From the sequence record MK295204: a stretch of DNA of 64,000 nt, one strand, 5' to 3'. Origin of the DNA: Shigella phage vB_SdyM_006. This document shows positions 5,665-43,510 of this stretch, one piece after another (positions within the stretch are counted from its first letter, which is position 1; the number at the start of each line of letters is the position of its first letter). Both the position numbers and the translations under genes were made by a program. The notes under the pieces are model-generated. The model saw nothing but the letters and a program-made list of their open reading frames with translations, was not told the origin of the DNA and searched no databases.

Positions 5665-6099
5665 TCACCTCTCAATAATGTGTATTCTATCATCTAAAAT
5701 ATCATTAAGCATAGGACCAATGACATCCCAATTTAAGCCACCATTAGAACACCCTGGTTTAGGCAGGAGAACTCTTTTAAAATTGTTATTAGATACTATC
5801 TCCATTAATTCTAATGCACTCTTACGTATCAGGTCTTTATCAGACTTGTTATACCAATCATGTTTAGTAGGAAATGATATTAAATTAATGTTATTATATT
5901 TCGTAAGAATTCTGCATACATGGCCGTATTGGATTAAGGATTTAGCCATGATTAAGTCTAAATTAGGAACCTTCAACGAAAAGAGACGGGCAATTCCGGC
6001 TCCCATAACAGCTCTTTTATTTTTCTTGATATTCATGTTTGTTGTAATGCAAATAGCATCACAAGGGATATCAAGAATATTTCCAGATACTATTTTCAT
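5665..6099 (-). CDS. macro-domain protein (ADP-ribose binding/hydrolase fold)
   Basis: 144 aa; N-terminal SGNILDIPCDAICITTN, glycine loop VMGAGIA, C-terminal PKPGCSNGG fit minimal macro domain. Confidence 0.75.
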   Translation of the reverse strand: MKIVSGNILDIPCDAICITTNMNIKKNKRAVMGAGIARLFSLKVPNLDLIMAKSLIQYGHVCRILTKYNNINLISFPTKHDWYNKSDKDLIRKSALELMEIVSNNNFKRVLLPKPGCSNGGLNWDVIGPMLNDILDDRIHIIER

Positions 6100-6518
6100 A
6101 AAGCTTCTTTTAAAACTTCTATAGCATGCTTAATTTCAAAAGGGATACCTTCTGATGGATGCTGGCGAATGTTATCGTCAATATGACTAAAATCCATGCC
6201 AATTACACGGACTTTATATTTTTGCTCACTATCAAATTCTGATATATTAGAACCCCAAGTGTTTGATGATGTAACTTCTTTAGTCTCAAAATAAGTACAT
6301 CCACAATGACAATATTCGTGCCAAAAATCACAGTCTTTATCAAATAAAGGGTGGTCTTCGCGAAGAGTTAAATATACCGCATAACTCCAATCCGGACGAC
6401 CATCATTAAATAAAGCTTTATAACTAGGTGGTAATCCTGTAAACCATGAAGTAACTTCAATAGCTTCGCCTTTCTTTTTATCTGCATGAACAGTGTATAC
6501 ATATTTTTGAATAGACAT
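6096..6518 (-). CDS. Cys/His-rich protein coupled to macro-domain gene
   Basis: Stop overlaps macro start (ATGA); contains CDFWHEYCHCGC cluster; no family recognised. Confidence 0.55.
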   Translation of the reverse strand: MSIQKYVYTVHADKKKGEAIEVTSWFTGLPPSYKALFNDGRPDWSYAVYLTLREDHPLFDKDCDFWHEYCHCGCTYFETKEVTSSNTWGSNISEFDSEQKYKVRVIGMDFSHIDDNIRQHPSEGIPFEIKHAIEVLKEAL

Positions 6519-6716
6519 TTATTTTACCTCAATAATAGTGAGTTCAGTATCTTCTGTCAAATCACAAAAGTCAAAAGCCAATGCAGCAATACCTGGGTAT
6601 TCTGATTCGTCAATAATACATTCAGTATTATTATTTTTGATGTCTAAGGCTAATTGATAATTAGACGTAGTAAATCCAAGTTCAAGTTCTTCGCACCATA
6701 CGGTATACTTTTTCAT
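6519..6716 (-). CDS. small protein, tandem paralog A (65 aa)
   Basis: Begins MKKYTVWCEE, ends TIIEVK; paralog of adjacent gene. Confidence 0.55.
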   Translation of the reverse strand: MKKYTVWCEELELGFTTSNYQLALDIKNNNTECIIDESEYPGIAALAFDFCDLTEDTELTIIEVK

Positions 6717-36064: not shown

Positions 36065-37237
36065 TTATAAGTATTTCTTAAATCCATCTAAAACTTCTGG
36101 ATTAATATCTTCATCAATTTGAGAAATTAAATAAGAATCGATTTCAACTTCTTGAGGTGCTGATTGAACACCTTCAGAATTTAGATATTTAGACATCCAG
36201 ACTAAAGGATTTTTAAGACCTTTATATGGACTATTTAATCCAGCATGACGCATTCGGATATCAGTAATATAGTCTACATAGCCTTTAAGATTTGTATGGT
36301 TTAAACCTGAGACAGTCCCAAATTTAAACAGATCATCTACCCAATCTTTTTCTTGTTGATTTACTTCTAAGAATAATGTAGTAGCTTCTTCTTCAAGTTC
36401 ATCTGCGATTTTTTTCCAGTGTTCGCCTTCTTTACCAGATTGCCATTGACGAATCATATATTGAGTGCCTTTAAGATGTAATTGTTCATCACGGGCAATC
36501 AACTTCATGATTTTGGTATTGCCTTCAAGAACACCTTTGTTTTCGAAGAAATTAAATGTACACGCAAAAGATACATAAAACCGAATAGCTTCTAAAGCAT
36601 TAATGGCATGCATACATAGATATAGTTTACGCATGGCATCATCTAAATCTTTTTCATATCGATTCCAAGCGCCAATTAATTGGAATCCTGTTGGGTCTCG
36701 TTGTTCTTCTTCCTCAATAATGTCTTTAATATTTTCGTATTCTCTGATAGCCTTAATTAAAGAATCATAATATTTTGTGATTGATTCTGCACGAGCCATA
36801 ATAGCATCATCAAGAACAATTTCGTCAAATTCTTTTGATGGGTCTTCATAAAGATTACGCATAATATGAGTATAAGACCTAGAATGAATTGTTTCGCTAA
36901 ATGACCATGTTTGAATCCATGTTTCTAATGAGACATCAGAACAAATAGACAATAAAGCTTCTGATGGACCACGTCCTTGAATAGAATCAAGAAGTGTTTG
37001 ATATTTTAAGTTATTAGTAAAAATTCTTTTTTCGTGTTCAAGTAATTTGTCGTACTGTGATTTGTCTGTCATTAAATTAACTTCTTCTGGCCGCCAAAAA
37101 AAGCTTAAAGCTTTTTCAGTCAAATCTTCAAAGACTCGATGTTTTACTGTTTCGTAACGTGCAATACCTGTTGATTCACCAAAGAACATTGGCTGAGACA
37201 TGATGTCGATTTGTTCTTTATTAAAAATAGTTGCCAT
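36065..37237 (-). CDS. nrdB: ribonucleotide reductase beta subunit (class Ia), uninterrupted
   Basis: Co-linear with T4 NrdB (FFWRPEEVNL, SYTHIMRNLY, EAIRFYVSFACTFNF); single continuous ORF. Confidence 0.95.
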   Translation of the reverse strand: MATIFNKEQIDIMSQPMFFGESTGIARYETVKHRVFEDLTEKALSFFWRPEEVNLMTDKSQYDKLLEHEKRIFTNNLKYQTLLDSIQGRGPSEALLSICSDVSLETWIQTWSFSETIHSRSYTHIMRNLYEDPSKEFDEIVLDDAIMARAESITKYYDSLIKAIREYENIKDIIEEEEQRDPTGFQLIGAWNRYEKDLDDAMRKLYLCMHAINALEAIRFYVSFACTFNFFENKGVLEGNTKIMKLIARDEQLHLKGTQYMIRQWQSGKEGEHWKKIADELEEEATTLFLEVNQQEKDWVDDLFKFGTVSGLNHTNLKGYVDYITDIRMRHAGLNSPYKGLKNPLVWMSKYLNSEGVQSAPQEVEIDSYLISQIDEDINPEVLDGFKKYL

Positions 37238-37377
37238 TTTAATCCTTAATTTTTCTTTTTACAAGGGTCCCATCTTTTACTGCTTTGTCATAAGCAATTT
37301 TAATTAATCGTAGACGTTCCACTTTAGAATTTCTAATTTTGTTAAAATCTATCTCGGACGAATCCGAGATAGTTGTA

Positions 37378-39618
37378 TTATAACTTACAGCTTTCGCAAT
37401 CTGACTGTCCTTGATCTTCATCTTGATTATTACCATCATTAGTATTATGATAATACATAGTTTTTCCACCTAATGACCAGAAGTATAACATATCATCCAT
37501 GATTACGCTCATTGGTACCTTAGATTTTTCATAAATACTTGGAGTGTAATAAGTATTAACAGAAATACTTTGGTCTACAAACTTCTGCATAATAGCAGCT
37601 TGAGTTAAATAACCTTTCATTCCGCGTTTACTTAGGTCCCAGGCATAATCATAAAGATCTTCATTAAACTCAATATTAGGAACAACTTGATTAAACGACC
37701 CGTCTTTAGAAGCTTTAGCTGTTACAGATTTTCTTGGTGGTTCAATACCATTTGTGCTATTAGAAACTTGAGAAGACGATTCACACGGCATTAATGCAGA
37801 TAAAGTACTGTTTCTGATACCATATTTCTTAAGGTCTTTTCTTAAAGATTCCCAATCACAAACATATTCCGGTTTAACAATTTTATCTAAATTTTTATTA
37901 TACCAATCAATAGGTAATAAGCCTTGAGAATACTTAGTTTCGTGATAAAGTTCGCATGGACCTTTTTCTTTAGCTAAATCAACAGAAGCTCTGATTAATG
38001 CATATTGTAGTCGTTCAAATAACTCATGAGTAAACTGTTGTGCATTATCATAATTTAAGAACTGAGAAGCTAACGCCGCTGCATAGTTAGTTACACCCAT
38101 TCCTAATGCTCTACGTTTTTTAGCAATTAAAGCTTTTTCAACAGGATAATCTTGATAATCTAATAAAGCATCTAATGCTCGGACACCGACACGTGCAATT
38201 TTATTAATTTGTTCTTGGTCTTGATAATCAAAAGAATCTAGAACAAATGCACTTAATGTACATAAAGCTATTTCGCCATCAGGTTTGCCTACATCACTTG
38301 TTGGCAATGTAATTTCAGCACATAAATTACTTAATCTGATAGGTGATGTTCTTCTGATAAAAGAACCTTGTCTATTAACATTATCGACAAAGAACGGATA
38401 AATTCTTGCAGTGTTAGCTCGTTCAGTTAATAGAATAGAAAATACTTCTGAAGCCTTAATTCGTTTTTTACGAATATTAGGGTCTTTTTCTGCTGCTTCA
38501 TATAAATTACGGAATTTCTCTTCATCAGAAAAATATGAATCATACATTCCTTGGACTTCATGTGGGCTGAACAGAGTAATATAATCGTTATTAATTAAAC
38601 GTTCAATCATAAGGTTATTAATTTGAATTCCATAGTCAAGATGTCGAATACGGTTTTCTTCAATGCCTTTATTATTTTTTAGAACAAGCAATTTTTCTAA
38701 TTCAAGATGCCAAATTGGATAATATAATGTAGCAGACCCACCACGAATACCACCTTGAGAACAACTTTTTACAGAAGCCAAATGAGTTTTCCAGAAAGGA
38801 ATAACGCCAGTGTGTCTTACTTCGCCTGAACCAATTTTAGAACCTTCAGCACGATACATACCAGCATTAATGCCAATCCCAGCTCGTTTAGAAATATATT
38901 TGATAATTGAACGGTTTGTTTCATTAATAGAATCTAATGAGTCACCACTATCAATAACAACACAAGAGCTAAATTGACGAGTAGGTGTTCGTACACCAGC
39001 TAAAATAGGTGTAGGTAATGATAATTGTTTATCCGAGACTACGTCATAGAATTCAATGACCTGGTTTAATCGATTATTAGTTTCTTCTTGGAATAAGCAC
39101 ATCCCAATTAGCATAAATGCATATTGAGGAGTCTCGTAAATAATTCCAGTCGAACGGTCTTTAACTAAGTATTTACTTATTAATTGCATTGTCCCTGCAT
39201 AAGTAAATTTAAAATCTTTATCATGATTGATATGATTTTCTAATTCTTCAATTTCTTGTGCTGTATATTTACTTAAAATCTCAGAATCATATAATCCCAG
39301 GTTTACATTACGAGAAATTAATTCAATAAATGGAATAGGATTAGATTGTCCATATACTTTTTTACGTAATGCAATATGCTCTAAATTAGAAGCCACATAC
39401 TGATAATCTGGGGTTTCTTTTGAAATATTAGAAGCAGCAACTTTAATAATTGTTCGTTGAATCTGCTCTGTGGTCATATTATCTGTAAACATTGGTCTAG
39501 AGATTTCCATTACTTCATATGGGTCCACTGATGTATTTCTGCATGCAATCTCTAGTACATTAATAATTTTAGATTCGTCAAAATCTTGAGTTACACCTGA
39601 TGATTTAATTACTTTCAT
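37378..39618 (-). CDS. nrdA: ribonucleotide reductase alpha subunit (class Ia)
   Basis: 746 aa, ATP-cone N-terminus, C-terminal CESC; upstream of nrdB as in T4. Confidence 0.9.
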   Translation of the reverse strand: MKVIKSSGVTQDFDESKIINVLEIACRNTSVDPYEVMEISRPMFTDNMTTEQIQRTIIKVAASNISKETPDYQYVASNLEHIALRKKVYGQSNPIPFIELISRNVNLGLYDSEILSKYTAQEIEELENHINHDKDFKFTYAGTMQLISKYLVKDRSTGIIYETPQYAFMLIGMCLFQEETNNRLNQVIEFYDVVSDKQLSLPTPILAGVRTPTRQFSSCVVIDSGDSLDSINETNRSIIKYISKRAGIGINAGMYRAEGSKIGSGEVRHTGVIPFWKTHLASVKSCSQGGIRGGSATLYYPIWHLELEKLLVLKNNKGIEENRIRHLDYGIQINNLMIERLINNDYITLFSPHEVQGMYDSYFSDEEKFRNLYEAAEKDPNIRKKRIKASEVFSILLTERANTARIYPFFVDNVNRQGSFIRRTSPIRLSNLCAEITLPTSDVGKPDGEIALCTLSAFVLDSFDYQDQEQINKIARVGVRALDALLDYQDYPVEKALIAKKRRALGMGVTNYAAALASQFLNYDNAQQFTHELFERLQYALIRASVDLAKEKGPCELYHETKYSQGLLPIDWYNKNLDKIVKPEYVCDWESLRKDLKKYGIRNSTLSALMPCESSSQVSNSTNGIEPPRKSVTAKASKDGSFNQVVPNIEFNEDLYDYAWDLSKRGMKGYLTQAAIMQKFVDQSISVNTYYTPSIYEKSKVPMSVIMDDMLYFWSLGGKTMYYHNTNDGNNQDEDQGQSDCESCKL

Positions 39619-39629
39619 TTTATTCCTTT

Positions 39630-40196
39630 CTAGATATAATATTGATCTATTTTTCTAATATGGCTTTTAATAAACGAACTTAATATGGATGACAATTTTA
39701 TAGAATTTTCTACATTGTAACACCCCATAATCTTTTTATCACAAGATGCTAAAGAAAACATATAAACAGGTTCTTTGTTTTCATCATTTAAATAATTAAC
39801 AATAGATACAGCAGAAGAAAAATGGTTATTGTTTTTATCATCTGTTAAAAAATCTTTGATACATATTTCTGTCTTAGATTCTGCATGGTATTTCCAACTA
39901 TCTAGATATTTCACAAGTTTATTAAGCTTAGTTTTATAATGGGATAAAATTTTATCTGCACATATTTTATTAGGGGTTTTACCGTATGAATAAAAACTTG
40001 GTGTGTGTAAAATAATATGTCTAGTCCCGAAATTAAATCCTATAGATGCCACTAAATTTATAGGTCTATTTTTATTTCTTATCTTTTTGTATTCTAAAGA
40101 AACAGATTCTGATAAAACAATCCATTCGGATTCGTTAATTTCATAAAAAGCATTATTTGATATTTCTGTGGAAATATCAGTTTTATTAATATACAT
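39630..40196 (-). CDS. hypothetical protein (about 188 aa)
   Basis: Track start is TTG at 40241; ATG at 40196 avoids overlap with upstream gene. Confidence 0.45.
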   Translation of the reverse strand: MYINKTDISTEISNNAFYEINESEWIVLSESVSLEYKKIRNKNRPINLVASIGFNFGTRHIILHTPSFYSYGKTPNKICADKILSHYKTKLNKLVKYLDSWKYHAESKTEICIKDFLTDDKNNNHFSSAVSIVNYLNDENKEPVYMFSLASCDKKIMGCYNVENSIKLSSILSSFIKSHIRKIDQYYI

Positions 40197-40203
40197 AAAA
40201 GTC

Positions 40204-40488
40204 TCACAAATATATTTTATCATTAAACAGTTTATTAACAACTTCGGCTATTATATCACCATGGCATGGCTTAGGATAACATGTGCAACCAAGTCTAGAG
40301 CCTCTTAAAACTTCAAGATGATGTTTATTTATTTCGCCAGTTTTTATTTTATTAAGAAAATATGGGATAAACCTTTTGATGTTTTCTTCTCTAGTTCCAT
40401 CTTTAAAAGGATTACCCCACATTGTCCCTCTTTGAATATTAATATCAAAGTCAGAGTTATATTTATTAACGACTCTACAATGTTTCAT
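40204..40488 (-). CDS. DUF4326-like small protein
   Basis: WGNPF near N-terminus and LGCTCYPKPCHGDI near C-terminus fit the DUF4326 pattern as recalled. Confidence 0.5.
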   Translation of the reverse strand: MKHCRVVNKYNSDFDINIQRGTMWGNPFKDGTREENIKRFIPYFLNKIKTGEINKHHLEVLRGSRLGCTCYPKPCHGDIIAEVVNKLFNDKIYL

Positions 40489-40649
40489 TAACTATACATT
40501 AAAGGAAGAATTACAACAAACAATAATAGCATAATTAATAATAATTCCATTATATCTCCTTAAACCAAGGTTGGGTTTCTTCATACAAAAATCCGGCCAT
40601 TAAACAAATAACAGGAAACCAAATAATAAAAGCTATTAAATATTCCATG

Positions 40650-40997
40650 TTAGTCCTTTGGCTTCATGAATTCTAATAAAGCTTCTTTAAGTTCGCTAAT
40701 ATTAAGCCAGGCATTAAATTCTGATTTATATTCTCTAAAGTCTATAATATATTCTAAAGGAACAATAGAACCCAATTTTAGTTCATGTGTATAATCAAAC
40801 AGTAACGTTGAACCAGAATAACAACTAATTTTTAAATTTTCGTATTCGTTATAATTAAATTCAATTGTCTTATCAAATGGGTCTACATCATACAATAATT
40901 CGCATTTATACAATTCGGAACAAAGGGATTCTACAGAATCCCAAATTCCTAAAGTGTGCTCATAATCATCATAGACCGCTTGGACTAAAAAATTCAT
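40650..40997 (-). CDS. hypothetical protein (115 aa)
   Basis: ORF. Confidence 0.45.
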   Translation of the reverse strand: MNFLVQAVYDDYEHTLGIWDSVESLCSELYKCELLYDVDPFDKTIEFNYNEYENLKISCYSGSTLLFDYTHELKLGSIVPLEYIIDFREYKSEFNAWLNISELKEALLEFMKPKD

Positions 40998-41005
40998 AAT
41001 ATTTC

Positions 41006-41857
41006 CTATACACTGAAAGGGTATTTAATAGCAGGGTGATATTGATAATCTTGTACTTCAAAATCATCTACAGTGACCCAGGTTTCAATATCTTCTAATG
41101 ATCTGATATTATCATTAATAATAAGTTTAGGTGCATTAAACGGCGTCCTAGACACATGCTCTGGGACTAAAGATAATTGGTCTTCATAGATATGGGCATT
41201 TGTTATCTTATGAAACACTTTACCAGGTTTATTTGCTGTAATCTGGGCCATTAAATGTAAAAGCACATAACACTGAATCATATTAAAATTTAAACCTAAT
41301 GGGACATCACATGATCTTTGGTATGAAGTTAAATATAAAGTCCCATTAACGAGAGAAAAATTATGGGTATGCATACAAGGACGTAAACAACCTAAGTCAA
41401 ATTCTCCTGGATTCCAGAACGTTAGGATTTCTCCACGATCATCAGTTCCTTCACTTAAATTATCATAGATTTTTCTGAGTTGGTCAATAGTGCTATTAGG
41501 TCCTTGCCATTGTCGTCCTTGAACACCATAAACACGGCCCATATCGTCTTCACCTTTGCGATGAGGGTTATTTAGCCATGCTTGATTTTCATTAGCGTTT
41601 GCATTCCATGTATTACAACCAATTTCACGAAATTGCGCTGCATTGTCGTAACCACGAAGATATCCTAACAGTTCAGCAATAGCAGCTTTATAAAAGCTTT
41701 TACGAGTTGTATCAATTGGGAATTCAGAATATTCTAGGTCGGCATTAATAATAACACGACAAAATTTTCCAGTTCGTTTATTATATACGTCTTGGCCTTC
41801 ATTATAAATCTTTTTTAATAATTGTTGATACTGATTCTTTTCTAAGATCTTTTCCAT
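41006..41857 (-). CDS. td: thymidylate synthase family protein, uninterrupted
   Basis: [29 protein letters not shown] align with ThyA; active-site region reads LRPCMH not the usual PCH; position between frd and nrdA. Confidence 0.8.
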
Positions 41858-42147
41858 TTATTATCACTCACGTACACCAATTGTTTAAAAGATAGTTTAA
41901 GCTGTTCTATAGATACTTTAGAATCCGCTGTAACGAATTCTAATTCACCCATTCCTAGCATTTTACCATCAACCCAAAGTTCAATACATGTCATGTCCCA
42001 CCAATTTTTTCTAGAATTCAAGAAATCTCTAACTTGTTCTAAGTTAGAGAAAACTCCTGCGTTTCTAGAGGATTCACACATATTATGGTCAACAACAATA
42101 AGTATCTTCGACATTTTTATCCACCAAAACAAAATAAATTTGCTCAC
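41842..42147 (-). CDS. hypothetical protein
   Basis: ORF; start uncertain. Confidence 0.4.
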
Positions 42148-42496
42148 CTTGTTTAATAAAATATCCGTAGATTTTTACTTCAGTATCTTTAACTTTAACA
42201 TACCCTTCAGAAACGGCTTTTGTTATGTCAAATAGTGTAGTACGAATATAAACCAAGCCATCTTTAGTTCTAATAGATGTACATGATGAATTTATATTTG
42301 AGCCAAGTTCTTTTATATCACAAGAAATCTCATAAATACCATGGTGTAATTCTCGTTCTTGACAATTTCTATAATTAGATTTAAAAGTTTTTAAAGAAAT
42401 AGAATCTAAAAAGAATGTTCTTGAAGGAGGCGCTTTAACTAATTTCCATGAGCACATTGGTTGTACAAACTTTTTATACAATTTAATTTCAGCCAT
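42089..42496 (-). CDS. hypothetical protein, tandem paralog (135 aa)
   Basis: Shares W.LV.APK, HG.YE, ISEG with next ORF. Confidence 0.5.
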   Translation of the reverse strand: MAEIKLYKKFVQPMCSWKLVKAPPSRTFFLDSISLKTFKSNYRNCQERELHHGIYEISCDIKELGSNINSSCTSIRTKDGLVYIRTTLFDITKAVSEGYVKVKDTEVKIYGYFIKQGEQIYFVLVDKNVEDTYCC

Positions 42497-42890
42497 TATT
42501 CAAGTCCTCATTTATTAAAGGATAAAGACAAATAATACGGCCATTTTTTCTAAAGATACCTTTAACTGTAATTAAGTTATTTTCAATTTTAGTATGTCCT
42601 TCAGAAATAGATTTAAAAAGACGACATAAACATGTGTCCATTTTAACAGCTCGTTTATCTGTGATATCTGAATTTGTCAAATATAAATCGTGTCCATTAC
42701 CGCCATATTCTCTATCAATTTTATAATTTTTTAATTCGTAGACACCATGCGGCATAACATCAACATGTTCTTTTCGTATTAAAGATTTATACCCATCGAT
42801 AGTAAGGTCTTTAAAGAATAAGAAATGTTCTTTAGGTGCTTCTACAAGAACCCAATTATTTTGTTCTTCAAATCTGTGAATTAGTTGCAT
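42489..42890 (-). CDS. hypothetical protein, tandem paralog (133 aa)
   Basis: See previous feature. Confidence 0.5.
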   Translation of the reverse strand: MQLIHRFEEQNNWVLVEAPKEHFLFFKDLTIDGYKSLIRKEHVDVMPHGVYELKNYKIDREYGGNGHDLYLTNSDITDKRAVKMDTCLCRLFKSISEGHTKIENNLITVKGIFRKNGRIICLYPLINEDLNNG

Positions 42891-43510
42891 ACTCGTTCCA
42901 GTATAGTTTCTTCGATATAATTTTTAATATCGATATCGTTAAAATAATCAGTAACATATAAATGAGATTCTACTAACTTAAATTTAGCGTATCCACTCAA
43001 ATATTGCCCAATAGATTTATCTAAAAATGTATCTGCAGGATTTGTATCTGCATGTAAAACAGAAGTCCAAATAATCCTATCACAAAATTCAAATGAAGCT
43101 TCGATTAAACGTTTACCACCTATAATAGAAACTAAGTTCTTAGGGTTCTTGTTGTTAAATGTTGGAGCAACTTCGGCTTCTTTACAGATTTGTTCTAATT
43201 CATAAGGACCCCATGGTCCTACTATTTCTTTATCAGCAGGTTTTCCGTCTAATGAAAGTAGTTCACCTCTAGGGTCATCAACAAGAACAATAGAAATTCG
43301 GTCTTTCAATTTAGGCATAGACATAAATGTTTTAGGGCCCATGATAACATACGAATCAATTTGAGACGTAACAGGAACCATTCTAGGAGCTATAGTTCTT
43401 GATCTGAAGTTATCCATATCTTTTTTAATACGTGGCCAAGGAAGGGTTCCTTTGAATCCTATTCCGTATCCTTTCTGGTCGTATTGAGTTGCAAAAACGG
43501 TCTGAATCAT
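42881..43510 (-). CDS. frd: dihydrofolate reductase
   Basis: GFKGTLPW and VIMGPKTF resemble DHFR motifs; adjacent to td. Confidence 0.75.
   Translation of the reverse strand: MIQTVFATQYDQKGYGIGFKGTLPWPRIKKDMDNFRSRTIAPRMVPVTSQIDSYVIMGPKTFMSMPKLKDRISIVLVDDPRGELLSLDGKPADKEIVGPWGPYELEQICKEAEVAPTFNNKNPKNLVSIIGGKRLIEASFEFCDRIIWTSVLHADTNPADTFLDKSIGQYLSGYAKFKLVESHLYVTDYFNDIDIKNYIEETILERVCN

Follow-up and report, generated by a model that had tools for sequence, protein, structure and literature searches.

What are the two small genes that lie between nrdA and td in a T4-like phage, and did they arrive there together? The question is raised by Shigella phage vB_SdyM_006, of which a stretch of 64,000 nucleotides (nt) from the sequence record MK295204, here called the window, was analysed. 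Between nrdA and td the window encodes a protein of 94 amino acids (aa) and another of 188 aa (ORF188), and a reading of the sequence without database searches (the sequence-only reading) had described the pair as an acquired two-gene insert in an otherwise conserved interval. The two genes are best taken apart: the shorter is the orthologue of T4 nrdA.1, a conserved resident of the interval, and the longer is an orphan gene that fills a variable slot between nrdA.1 and nrdA. Over positions 39000-41900, the window shares 99.2% identity with Proteus phage SJ_PmiM (Bragavirus, Straboviridae) and ~84% with phages PM2 and Pm5461, which by nucleotide identity places the window phage among the T4-like Proteus phages of Bragavirus. 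Both open reading frames (ORFs) have the positions and lengths given by the sequence-only reading, and both flanking genes are those it had named:

41006-41857, minus strand: td, thymidylate synthase, the upstream edge of the interval (ORF translation and SJ_PmiM annotation).
40204-40488, minus strand: the 94-aa DUF4326 gene, orthologue of T4 nrdA.1 (matches to PF14216, phrog_464 and T4 NrdA.1).
39630-40196, minus strand: ORF188, lineage-specific orphan between nrdA.1 and nrdA (match to phrog_29380, a function-unknown family).
37378-39618, minus strand: nrdA, large subunit of the class Ia ribonucleotide reductase (ORF translation and SJ_PmiM annotation).

The 188-aa ORF had been called the upstream partner of the pair; read on the minus strand, it lies downstream (3') of the DUF4326 gene, before nrdA.

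The proposal that the 94-aa protein belongs to DUF4326 was well founded. The motifs WGNPF and GCTCYPKPCHGD that prompted it both occur in the translation, and a search with Pfam profile PF14216 gives E=1.1e-20 and 74.5 bits, with a curated cut-off of 25 bits, over profile positions 1-82 of 82. The protein also matches phrog_464 (E=1.6e-41), and T4 NrdA.1 (NP_049846.1) is 67% identical to it over 89 residues (E=5e-42). In the annotation of T4, T2 and RB6, nrdA.1 stands directly before nrdA, with an overlap of 10 nt. Together, these matches show the 94-aa gene to be the orthologue of T4 nrdA.1; it encodes a stand-alone DUF4326 domain and was inherited vertically in Straboviridae. In an alignment of 40 sequences, all of which also match PF14216, the residues V6, V7, N8, I18, R20, G25, N26, L66, C68, C70, P72, C75, H76, G77 and D78 are invariant, and the window protein carries all signature residues of the family (N8, R20, G25-N26, C68, C70 and C75-H76-G77-D78). 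nrdA.1/DUF4326 is an already known, widespread and biochemically uncharacterised phage family, and its presence here holds no surprise for a T4 specialist. The annotation of its members is uneven. In the vB_SdyM_006 record (protein AZV01358.1) and in that of phage phiP4-3 (3901-4188 of the compared stretch), the annotation gives a truncated DUF4326 protein of 72 aa, and the full frame of 94 codons is intact in both. The DUF4326 proteins of Bacillus phage Sophrita (gp122) and phage VEcB (gp157) and those of phrog_24867 bear the RefSeq or PHROGs label 'ribonucleotide reductase NrdA-like', which looks like a spread of the gene name nrdA.1 and not like similarity to NrdA.

The distribution of the family bears on whether the gene was acquired. 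By tblastn, a DUF4326 gene is found in 1996 of 50,697 phage records. Most of these belong to T4-like phages that infect enterobacteria, Vibrio, Aeromonas or Acinetobacter, and Ackermannviridae, T5-like, jumbo and Bacillus phages are represented too. Gene order was surveyed at the best 80 IMG/VR loci, with neighbours sought within 6 kilobases (kb). At 39 of these the DUF4326 gene stands directly before nrdA, and here the two genes overlap or leave a gap of at most 2 nt (32 loci), are 66 nt apart (four) or are separated by an inserted ORF (three). Six loci have the Slopekvirus-type order nrdA-nrdB-DUF4326, and nine have td upstream of the DUF4326 gene, directly adjacent in some, with no nrdA in range. 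The order nrdD-DUF4326-nrdG is seen at two loci of jumbo phages and another arrangement with a ribonucleotide reductase (RNR) or td gene nearby at one, while the remaining 23 have neither an RNR nor a td gene within 6 kb. As the gene stands directly before nrdA in most T4-like loci and occurs so widely, it is to be regarded as a conserved resident of this position and not as an acquisition. The sequence-only reading had turned on whether both ORFs are conserved core genes at this place in most T4-like phages, and comparison of the nrdA-td interval gives a divided answer: the DUF4326 ORF is conserved there, and ORF188 is lineage-restricted.

The main rival view of the protein is that NrdA.1 is a dedicated RNR accessory and not an enzyme of ADP-ribose or nucleic-acid-end chemistry; it might act as a regulator, as a redox partner through its cysteines, or as a metal or assembly factor. 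The close contact of its stop with the nrdA start in 32 of the 39 loci favours such a role, as do its adjacency to nrdB even after the rearrangement in Slopekvirus-type phages, its independent occurrence between the class III genes nrdD and nrdG, and the three invariant cysteines. However, the 23 loci with no RNR or td gene in range argue the other way, and so do the contexts in Ackermannviridae, T5-like phages, Otagovirus and Eneladusvirus, where no RNR gene is adjacent. In many other lineages the gene has replication, RNA-repair or DNA-modification genes as its neighbours. Aeromonas phage UP87 (OP380597.1) has its DUF4326 gene in the string frd-td-DUF4326-denA-rnlA, where T4-type nrdA/nrdB are missing; its class I reductase pair, which is different and shorter, is found at 64-67 kb, ~70 kb from the DUF4326 gene, and nrdD at 41.7 kb. 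It seems from this arrangement that the reductase genes were replaced or moved elsewhere, with nrdA.1 left in place between td and denA. A further point against an accessory role is that T4 encodes its own thioredoxin, NrdC. On this evidence, a role confined to RNR is unlikely.

While nrdA.1 is conserved, the space between it and nrdA is not. The genome of phiP4-3 is 98-100% identical to the window over most of the region, yet it holds an unrelated 95-aa ORF exactly in the slot of ORF188. The homology of the two phages ends at the ATG of ORF188 on one side and at the ribosome-binding site of nrdA on the other, and the cassette edge is marked by a conserved ATG and a GAG-type ribosome-binding site. 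These junctions show that ORF188 occupies a variable slot of Proteus Bragaviruses, swapped as a cassette whose limits are the ORF ATG and the ribosome-binding site of nrdA. Identity to phiP4-3 is 78-91% in the initial ~400 nt of nrdA (39200-39600), which adjoin the cassette, and 98-100% over most of the rest; the divergent tract is consistent with being the recombination tract that brought the cassette in. In another T4-like contig the nrdA.1/nrdA slot is taken by an 81-aa ORF. There the DUF4326 gene is flanked by ORFs of 67 aa (5736-5939) and 81 aa (6360-6605) that start alike, with MNIRIVNNRYGTREVLFEKM and MNLRFKRQTGEVIFEML; these could be paralogues, of which one fills the slot. The exact swap between nrdA.1 and nrdA illustrates, cleanly and on a small scale, ORF-level mosaicism in T4-like phages. 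The label 'putative major virion structural protein' given to the 95-aa ORF of phiP4-3 (phiP43_036) has no family match behind it. In phiP4-3, moreover, nrdA and nrdB are separated by a mobE-like homing endonuclease gene (window 37239-37377), and td has an intron containing I-TevI (window position 41320). The window lacks both, so that with the cassette the two phages differ by three separate insertion or replacement polymorphisms within 5 kb.

The proposed acquisition of both genes jointly, as a two-gene functional module, can be judged against this slot. The genes lie 7 nt apart on one strand, no terminator intervenes, and both are lower in guanine plus cytosine (GC) content than nrdA and td (24-26% in ORF188; 30-38% in nrdA and td), all of which would suit a module. 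Against it, phiP4-3 carries a DUF4326 gene 98-99% identical to the window copy beside a different ORF, and almost all of the 1996 DUF4326-bearing records lack ORF188, which was found in only five records, representing three Proteus phages, when the phage collection was searched. With nrdA.1 at its ancestral position as well, joint acquisition is highly improbable, and the distribution of the two genes already refutes it. The idea of an insert thus survives for ORF188, which is an orphan and behaves as one, and fails for the DUF4326 gene.

ORF188 itself is found only in SJ_PmiM, Pm5461, PM2 and vB_SdyM_006-type phages. It forms two clusters at 90% identity among 5.8 billion proteins, and an exhaustive phmmer search of 1.84 billion representative proteins found nothing beyond its own cluster. 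From its ATG (MYINK) the protein has 188 aa, and longer readings of 197 and 203 aa can be made; of these predicted starts, that of the 188-aa reading has the strongest support, because the ORF in the phiP4-3 slot begins at the equivalent ATG and homology ends right there. A sceptical reading would make ORF188 a chance open frame in an AT-rich spacer, without function, in line with its low GC content, its lack of homologues outside one phage genus and its poor AlphaFold2 model. Yet the frame of 188 codons stays intact at ~80% identity with mostly conservative replacements, and comparison with the PM2 copy gives a ratio of nonsynonymous to synonymous substitution rates (dN/dS) of 0.255 (dS 0.41, dN 0.10). 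The ORF is also packed tightly between genes, with the GAG-type ribosome-binding site and ATG at the cassette edge. The substitution pattern shows ORF188 to be a genuine low-GC orphan gene under purifying selection, and a chance frame is most improbable.

Alternatively, ORF188 might be a selfish mobile gene, such as a free-standing homing endonuclease of an unrecognised type. Its presence in one phage and absence in another with junctions exactly at the gene boundaries would fit this, as would a region rich in such genes (examples in phiP4-3 and T4 being a mobE-like gene and the I-TevI intron) and the divergent 5' tract of nrdA, which is of the kind that co-conversion leaves. However, no GIY-YIG, HNH, LAGLIDADG or other nuclease match was obtained at E<=1, the slot in phiP4-3 is occupied by a different ORF and not empty, and the predicted topology is a beta-sheet with long helices. 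We consider a homing endonuclease improbable. Our best guess is that ORF188 is a host-specific accessory protein, independent of NrdA.1. This assignment has to contend with two results: Pfam, NCBIfam and PADLOC give no match at E<=1, with the phrog_29380 match the only one among PHROGs, and the AlphaFold2 model that yields the topology just named is poor, with a predicted local distance difference test (pLDDT) score of 50.8. Searches of solved structures with the single sequence and with a profile gave chance-level matches only, and no defence or anti-defence label was given by PADLOC or NCBIfam to any of the three small proteins.

What, then, might the conserved partner do? AlphaFold2, given the 40-sequence alignment, models the 94-aa protein as a small alpha/beta domain (pLDDT 93.9). 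In the model a strand (65-68) ends at C68 and is followed by a loop (69-75) and a helix beginning at H76, with pLDDT above 90 throughout this part, so that a conserved cysteine at a strand end, a loop and a helix N-terminus would together make up the architecture of an active site. The window protein reads C68-T-C70-Y-P-K-P-C75-H76-G77-D78 here, and 73 of 74 distinct family sequences from the surveyed loci keep the C-x-C-x4-C-H motif. Seven of the 40 DUF4326 members give collinear, sub-threshold matches to the Pfam family DUF488-N3a (best E=0.003, 18 bits). Burroughs and Aravind (NAR Genom Bioinform, 2023) are said to have defined a 'RapZ-C-DUF488-DUF4326' clade. The fold and sequence results fit the published computational placement of DUF4326 in the rhodanese-phosphatase superfamily.

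From these elements a mechanism can be proposed. NrdA.1 would be a small alpha/beta enzyme belonging to the RapZ-C/DUF488/DUF4326 branch of that superfamily, in which the C-x-C-x4-C-H loop, nearly invariant and set between a central beta-strand and a helix, would form an anion-binding pocket with a cysteine nucleophile. The pocket could act on a phosphate attached to ribose, as in a nucleotide, a breakdown product or derivative of ADP-ribose, or a nucleic-acid end. The enzyme, presumably expressed together with the early nucleotide-metabolism genes, might serve the nucleotide or DNA metabolism of the phage, or counter-defence. Several observations weigh against such a mechanism. The canonical phosphatase signature C-x5-R-[ST] is absent, as there is no arginine at +6 from C68 or C70 and the residue after H76 is glycine instead of arginine, and C68, C70, C75 and H76 could form a structural zinc site instead. 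Comparisons by hhalign with the single sequences of E. coli RapZ and YeaO were not significant, nor was a Smith-Waterman comparison with E. coli RapZ-C (z=0.1 with 1000 shuffles), and in a hidden Markov model test against 2000 shuffles the real RapZ-C fell among the shuffles. Outside T4-like phages the genomic contexts are mixed, with replication modules, tRNA or RNA-repair genes and a DNA methylase. Finally, the literature searched gave no biochemical or genetic data on any DUF4326 protein, nor an experimental paper on the function of nrdA.1 or DUF488, which bears out the statement of the sequence-only reading that the function of DUF4326 is not established experimentally. Taken alone, the mechanism is put forward tentatively, with slightly less than an even chance of being right. 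The explanation as a whole, which joins a conserved nrdA.1 orthologue, an orphan cassette and the cysteine-enzyme proposal, we consider rather probable.

A relationship to NADAR-type folds had also been suggested. In the rival form of this suggestion, DUF4326/NrdA.1 is a divergent NADAR-type N-glycosidase or ADP-ribose hydrolase. In the literature NADAR appears as a fusion partner of DUF4326 and not as a homologue (PMC9503650, PMC7824862), and fusion argues for a complementary, not an identical, activity. Homology was tried with hhalign against YbiA alone and against a profile of 25 NADAR sequences and was rejected at probabilities of 0.1-0.3%, the profile comparison reaching 0.3% over 13 columns. 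None of the 40 members matches the NADAR family PF08719 even at E<=10, and among the invariant columns of NADAR nothing corresponds to the invariant Cys/His loop. The suggested kinship with NADAR was thus not upheld at the sequence level, and a NADAR-type activity is very improbable. A test of DUF4326 for the macro fold was negative. Foldseek with the DUF4326 model against the PDB returned nothing below E=2, and single-sequence and profile searches of solved structures returned chance-level matches only.

The most far-reaching version of events would be that NrdA.1 is a cysteine-based accessory enzyme or factor of deoxynucleotide synthesis, recruited independently beside class Ia (nrdA/nrdB) and class III (nrdD/nrdG) genes in unrelated phage families, and that separately ORF188 is a new protein for host takeover or anti-defence, specific to Proteus, whose fold has not been seen before. 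Although this has little probability in our judgement, an RNR-linked NrdA.1 would, if true, give a function to an orphan family found in ~4% of sequenced phage genomes. For nrdA.1/DUF4326 there are computational function predictions only, even though ~2000 phage records, including that of the model phage T4, encode DUF4326. The coupling to reductase genes, the C-x-C-x4-C-H loop and the RapZ-C-like model are handles that make an experimental test straightforward.

For the window itself the consequences are small: a conserved hypothetical gene and an orphan insert lie in a nucleotide-metabolism cluster of the standard T4 type. The interval belongs to the string frd-td-small ORFs-nrdA.1-(insert)-nrdA-nrdB, in which all genes from frd to nrdB are tightly packed on the minus strand. 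The other features are:

42881-43510, minus strand: frd.
42089-42890, minus strand: two paralogous small ORFs.
41842-42147, minus strand: a 101-aa ORF.
40650-40997, minus strand: a 115-aa ORF between td and the mini-ORFs (phrog_22133, E=4.9e-60, a function-unknown family).
40550-40648, minus strand: hydrophobic mini-ORF MEYLIAFIIWFPVICLMAGFLYEETQPWFKEI of 32 codons (read from the sequence; hypothetical SJ_76 in SJ_PmiM).
40488-40550, minus strand: putative hydrophobic mini-ORF MELLLIMLLLFVVILPLMYS of 20 codons (read from the sequence).
36065-37237, minus strand: nrdB.

The two mini-ORFs, both very hydrophobic, are linked to each other and to the start of the DUF4326 gene by TAATG stop/start overlaps; the 32-codon frame is also annotated at the equivalent position of PM2, and the 20-codon frame has no annotation in SJ_PmiM. 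The 115-aa ORF has no similarity to T4 NrdA.2 and hence is unrelated to T4 nrdA.2. Scans of the interval for promoters and terminators found sites no commoner than in shuffled sequence, and a motif scan found no T4 late-promoter motif in it. Between td and frd, the ORFs at 42089-42496 (135 aa) and 42489-42890 (133 aa) both match phrog_1928 (E ~1e-30), and this adjacent pair looks like a tandem duplication of one function-unknown gene.

NADAR proteins such as YbiA (PF08719; PDB 8bau, 2b3w, 8bat) are ~150 aa long with other invariant residues, whereas the DUF4326 core has 82 positions. The cysteine-based protein-tyrosine and dual-specificity phosphatases and PTEN have the C-x5-R-[ST] signature and a general-acid loop, both missing from DUF4326, whose domain is about half the size. 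RapZ-C (PDB 5o5s, 5o5q; PF22740) has a C-x5-R motif (CTGGKHR), in contrast to the longer, arginine-free C-x-C-x4-C-H-G loop of DUF4326, and it serves as an RNA adaptor and has a kinase-like N-domain as its fusion partner; by eye alone, the two resemble each other in 'GCT...H' followed by '..IAE..' and in an Arg...N-P-[HF] loop. With DUF488 N3a (PF22751; PF04343), the matches of DUF4326 members span helix, strand, Cys loop and helix, but all remain under the 27-bit cut-off, the window protein itself gives none, and E. coli YeaO (DUF488) lacks the cysteines. T4 NrdA.1 is the product of the same gene: it shares with the window protein the position between td and nrdA and the motifs VVNKY, RG-x-WGN and C-x-C-x4-CHGD. 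The T4 protein is 108 aa long as annotated, from a longer N-terminal call, against 94 aa in the window, and the T4 gene overlaps nrdA by those 10 nt, whereas in the window ORF188 separates the two.
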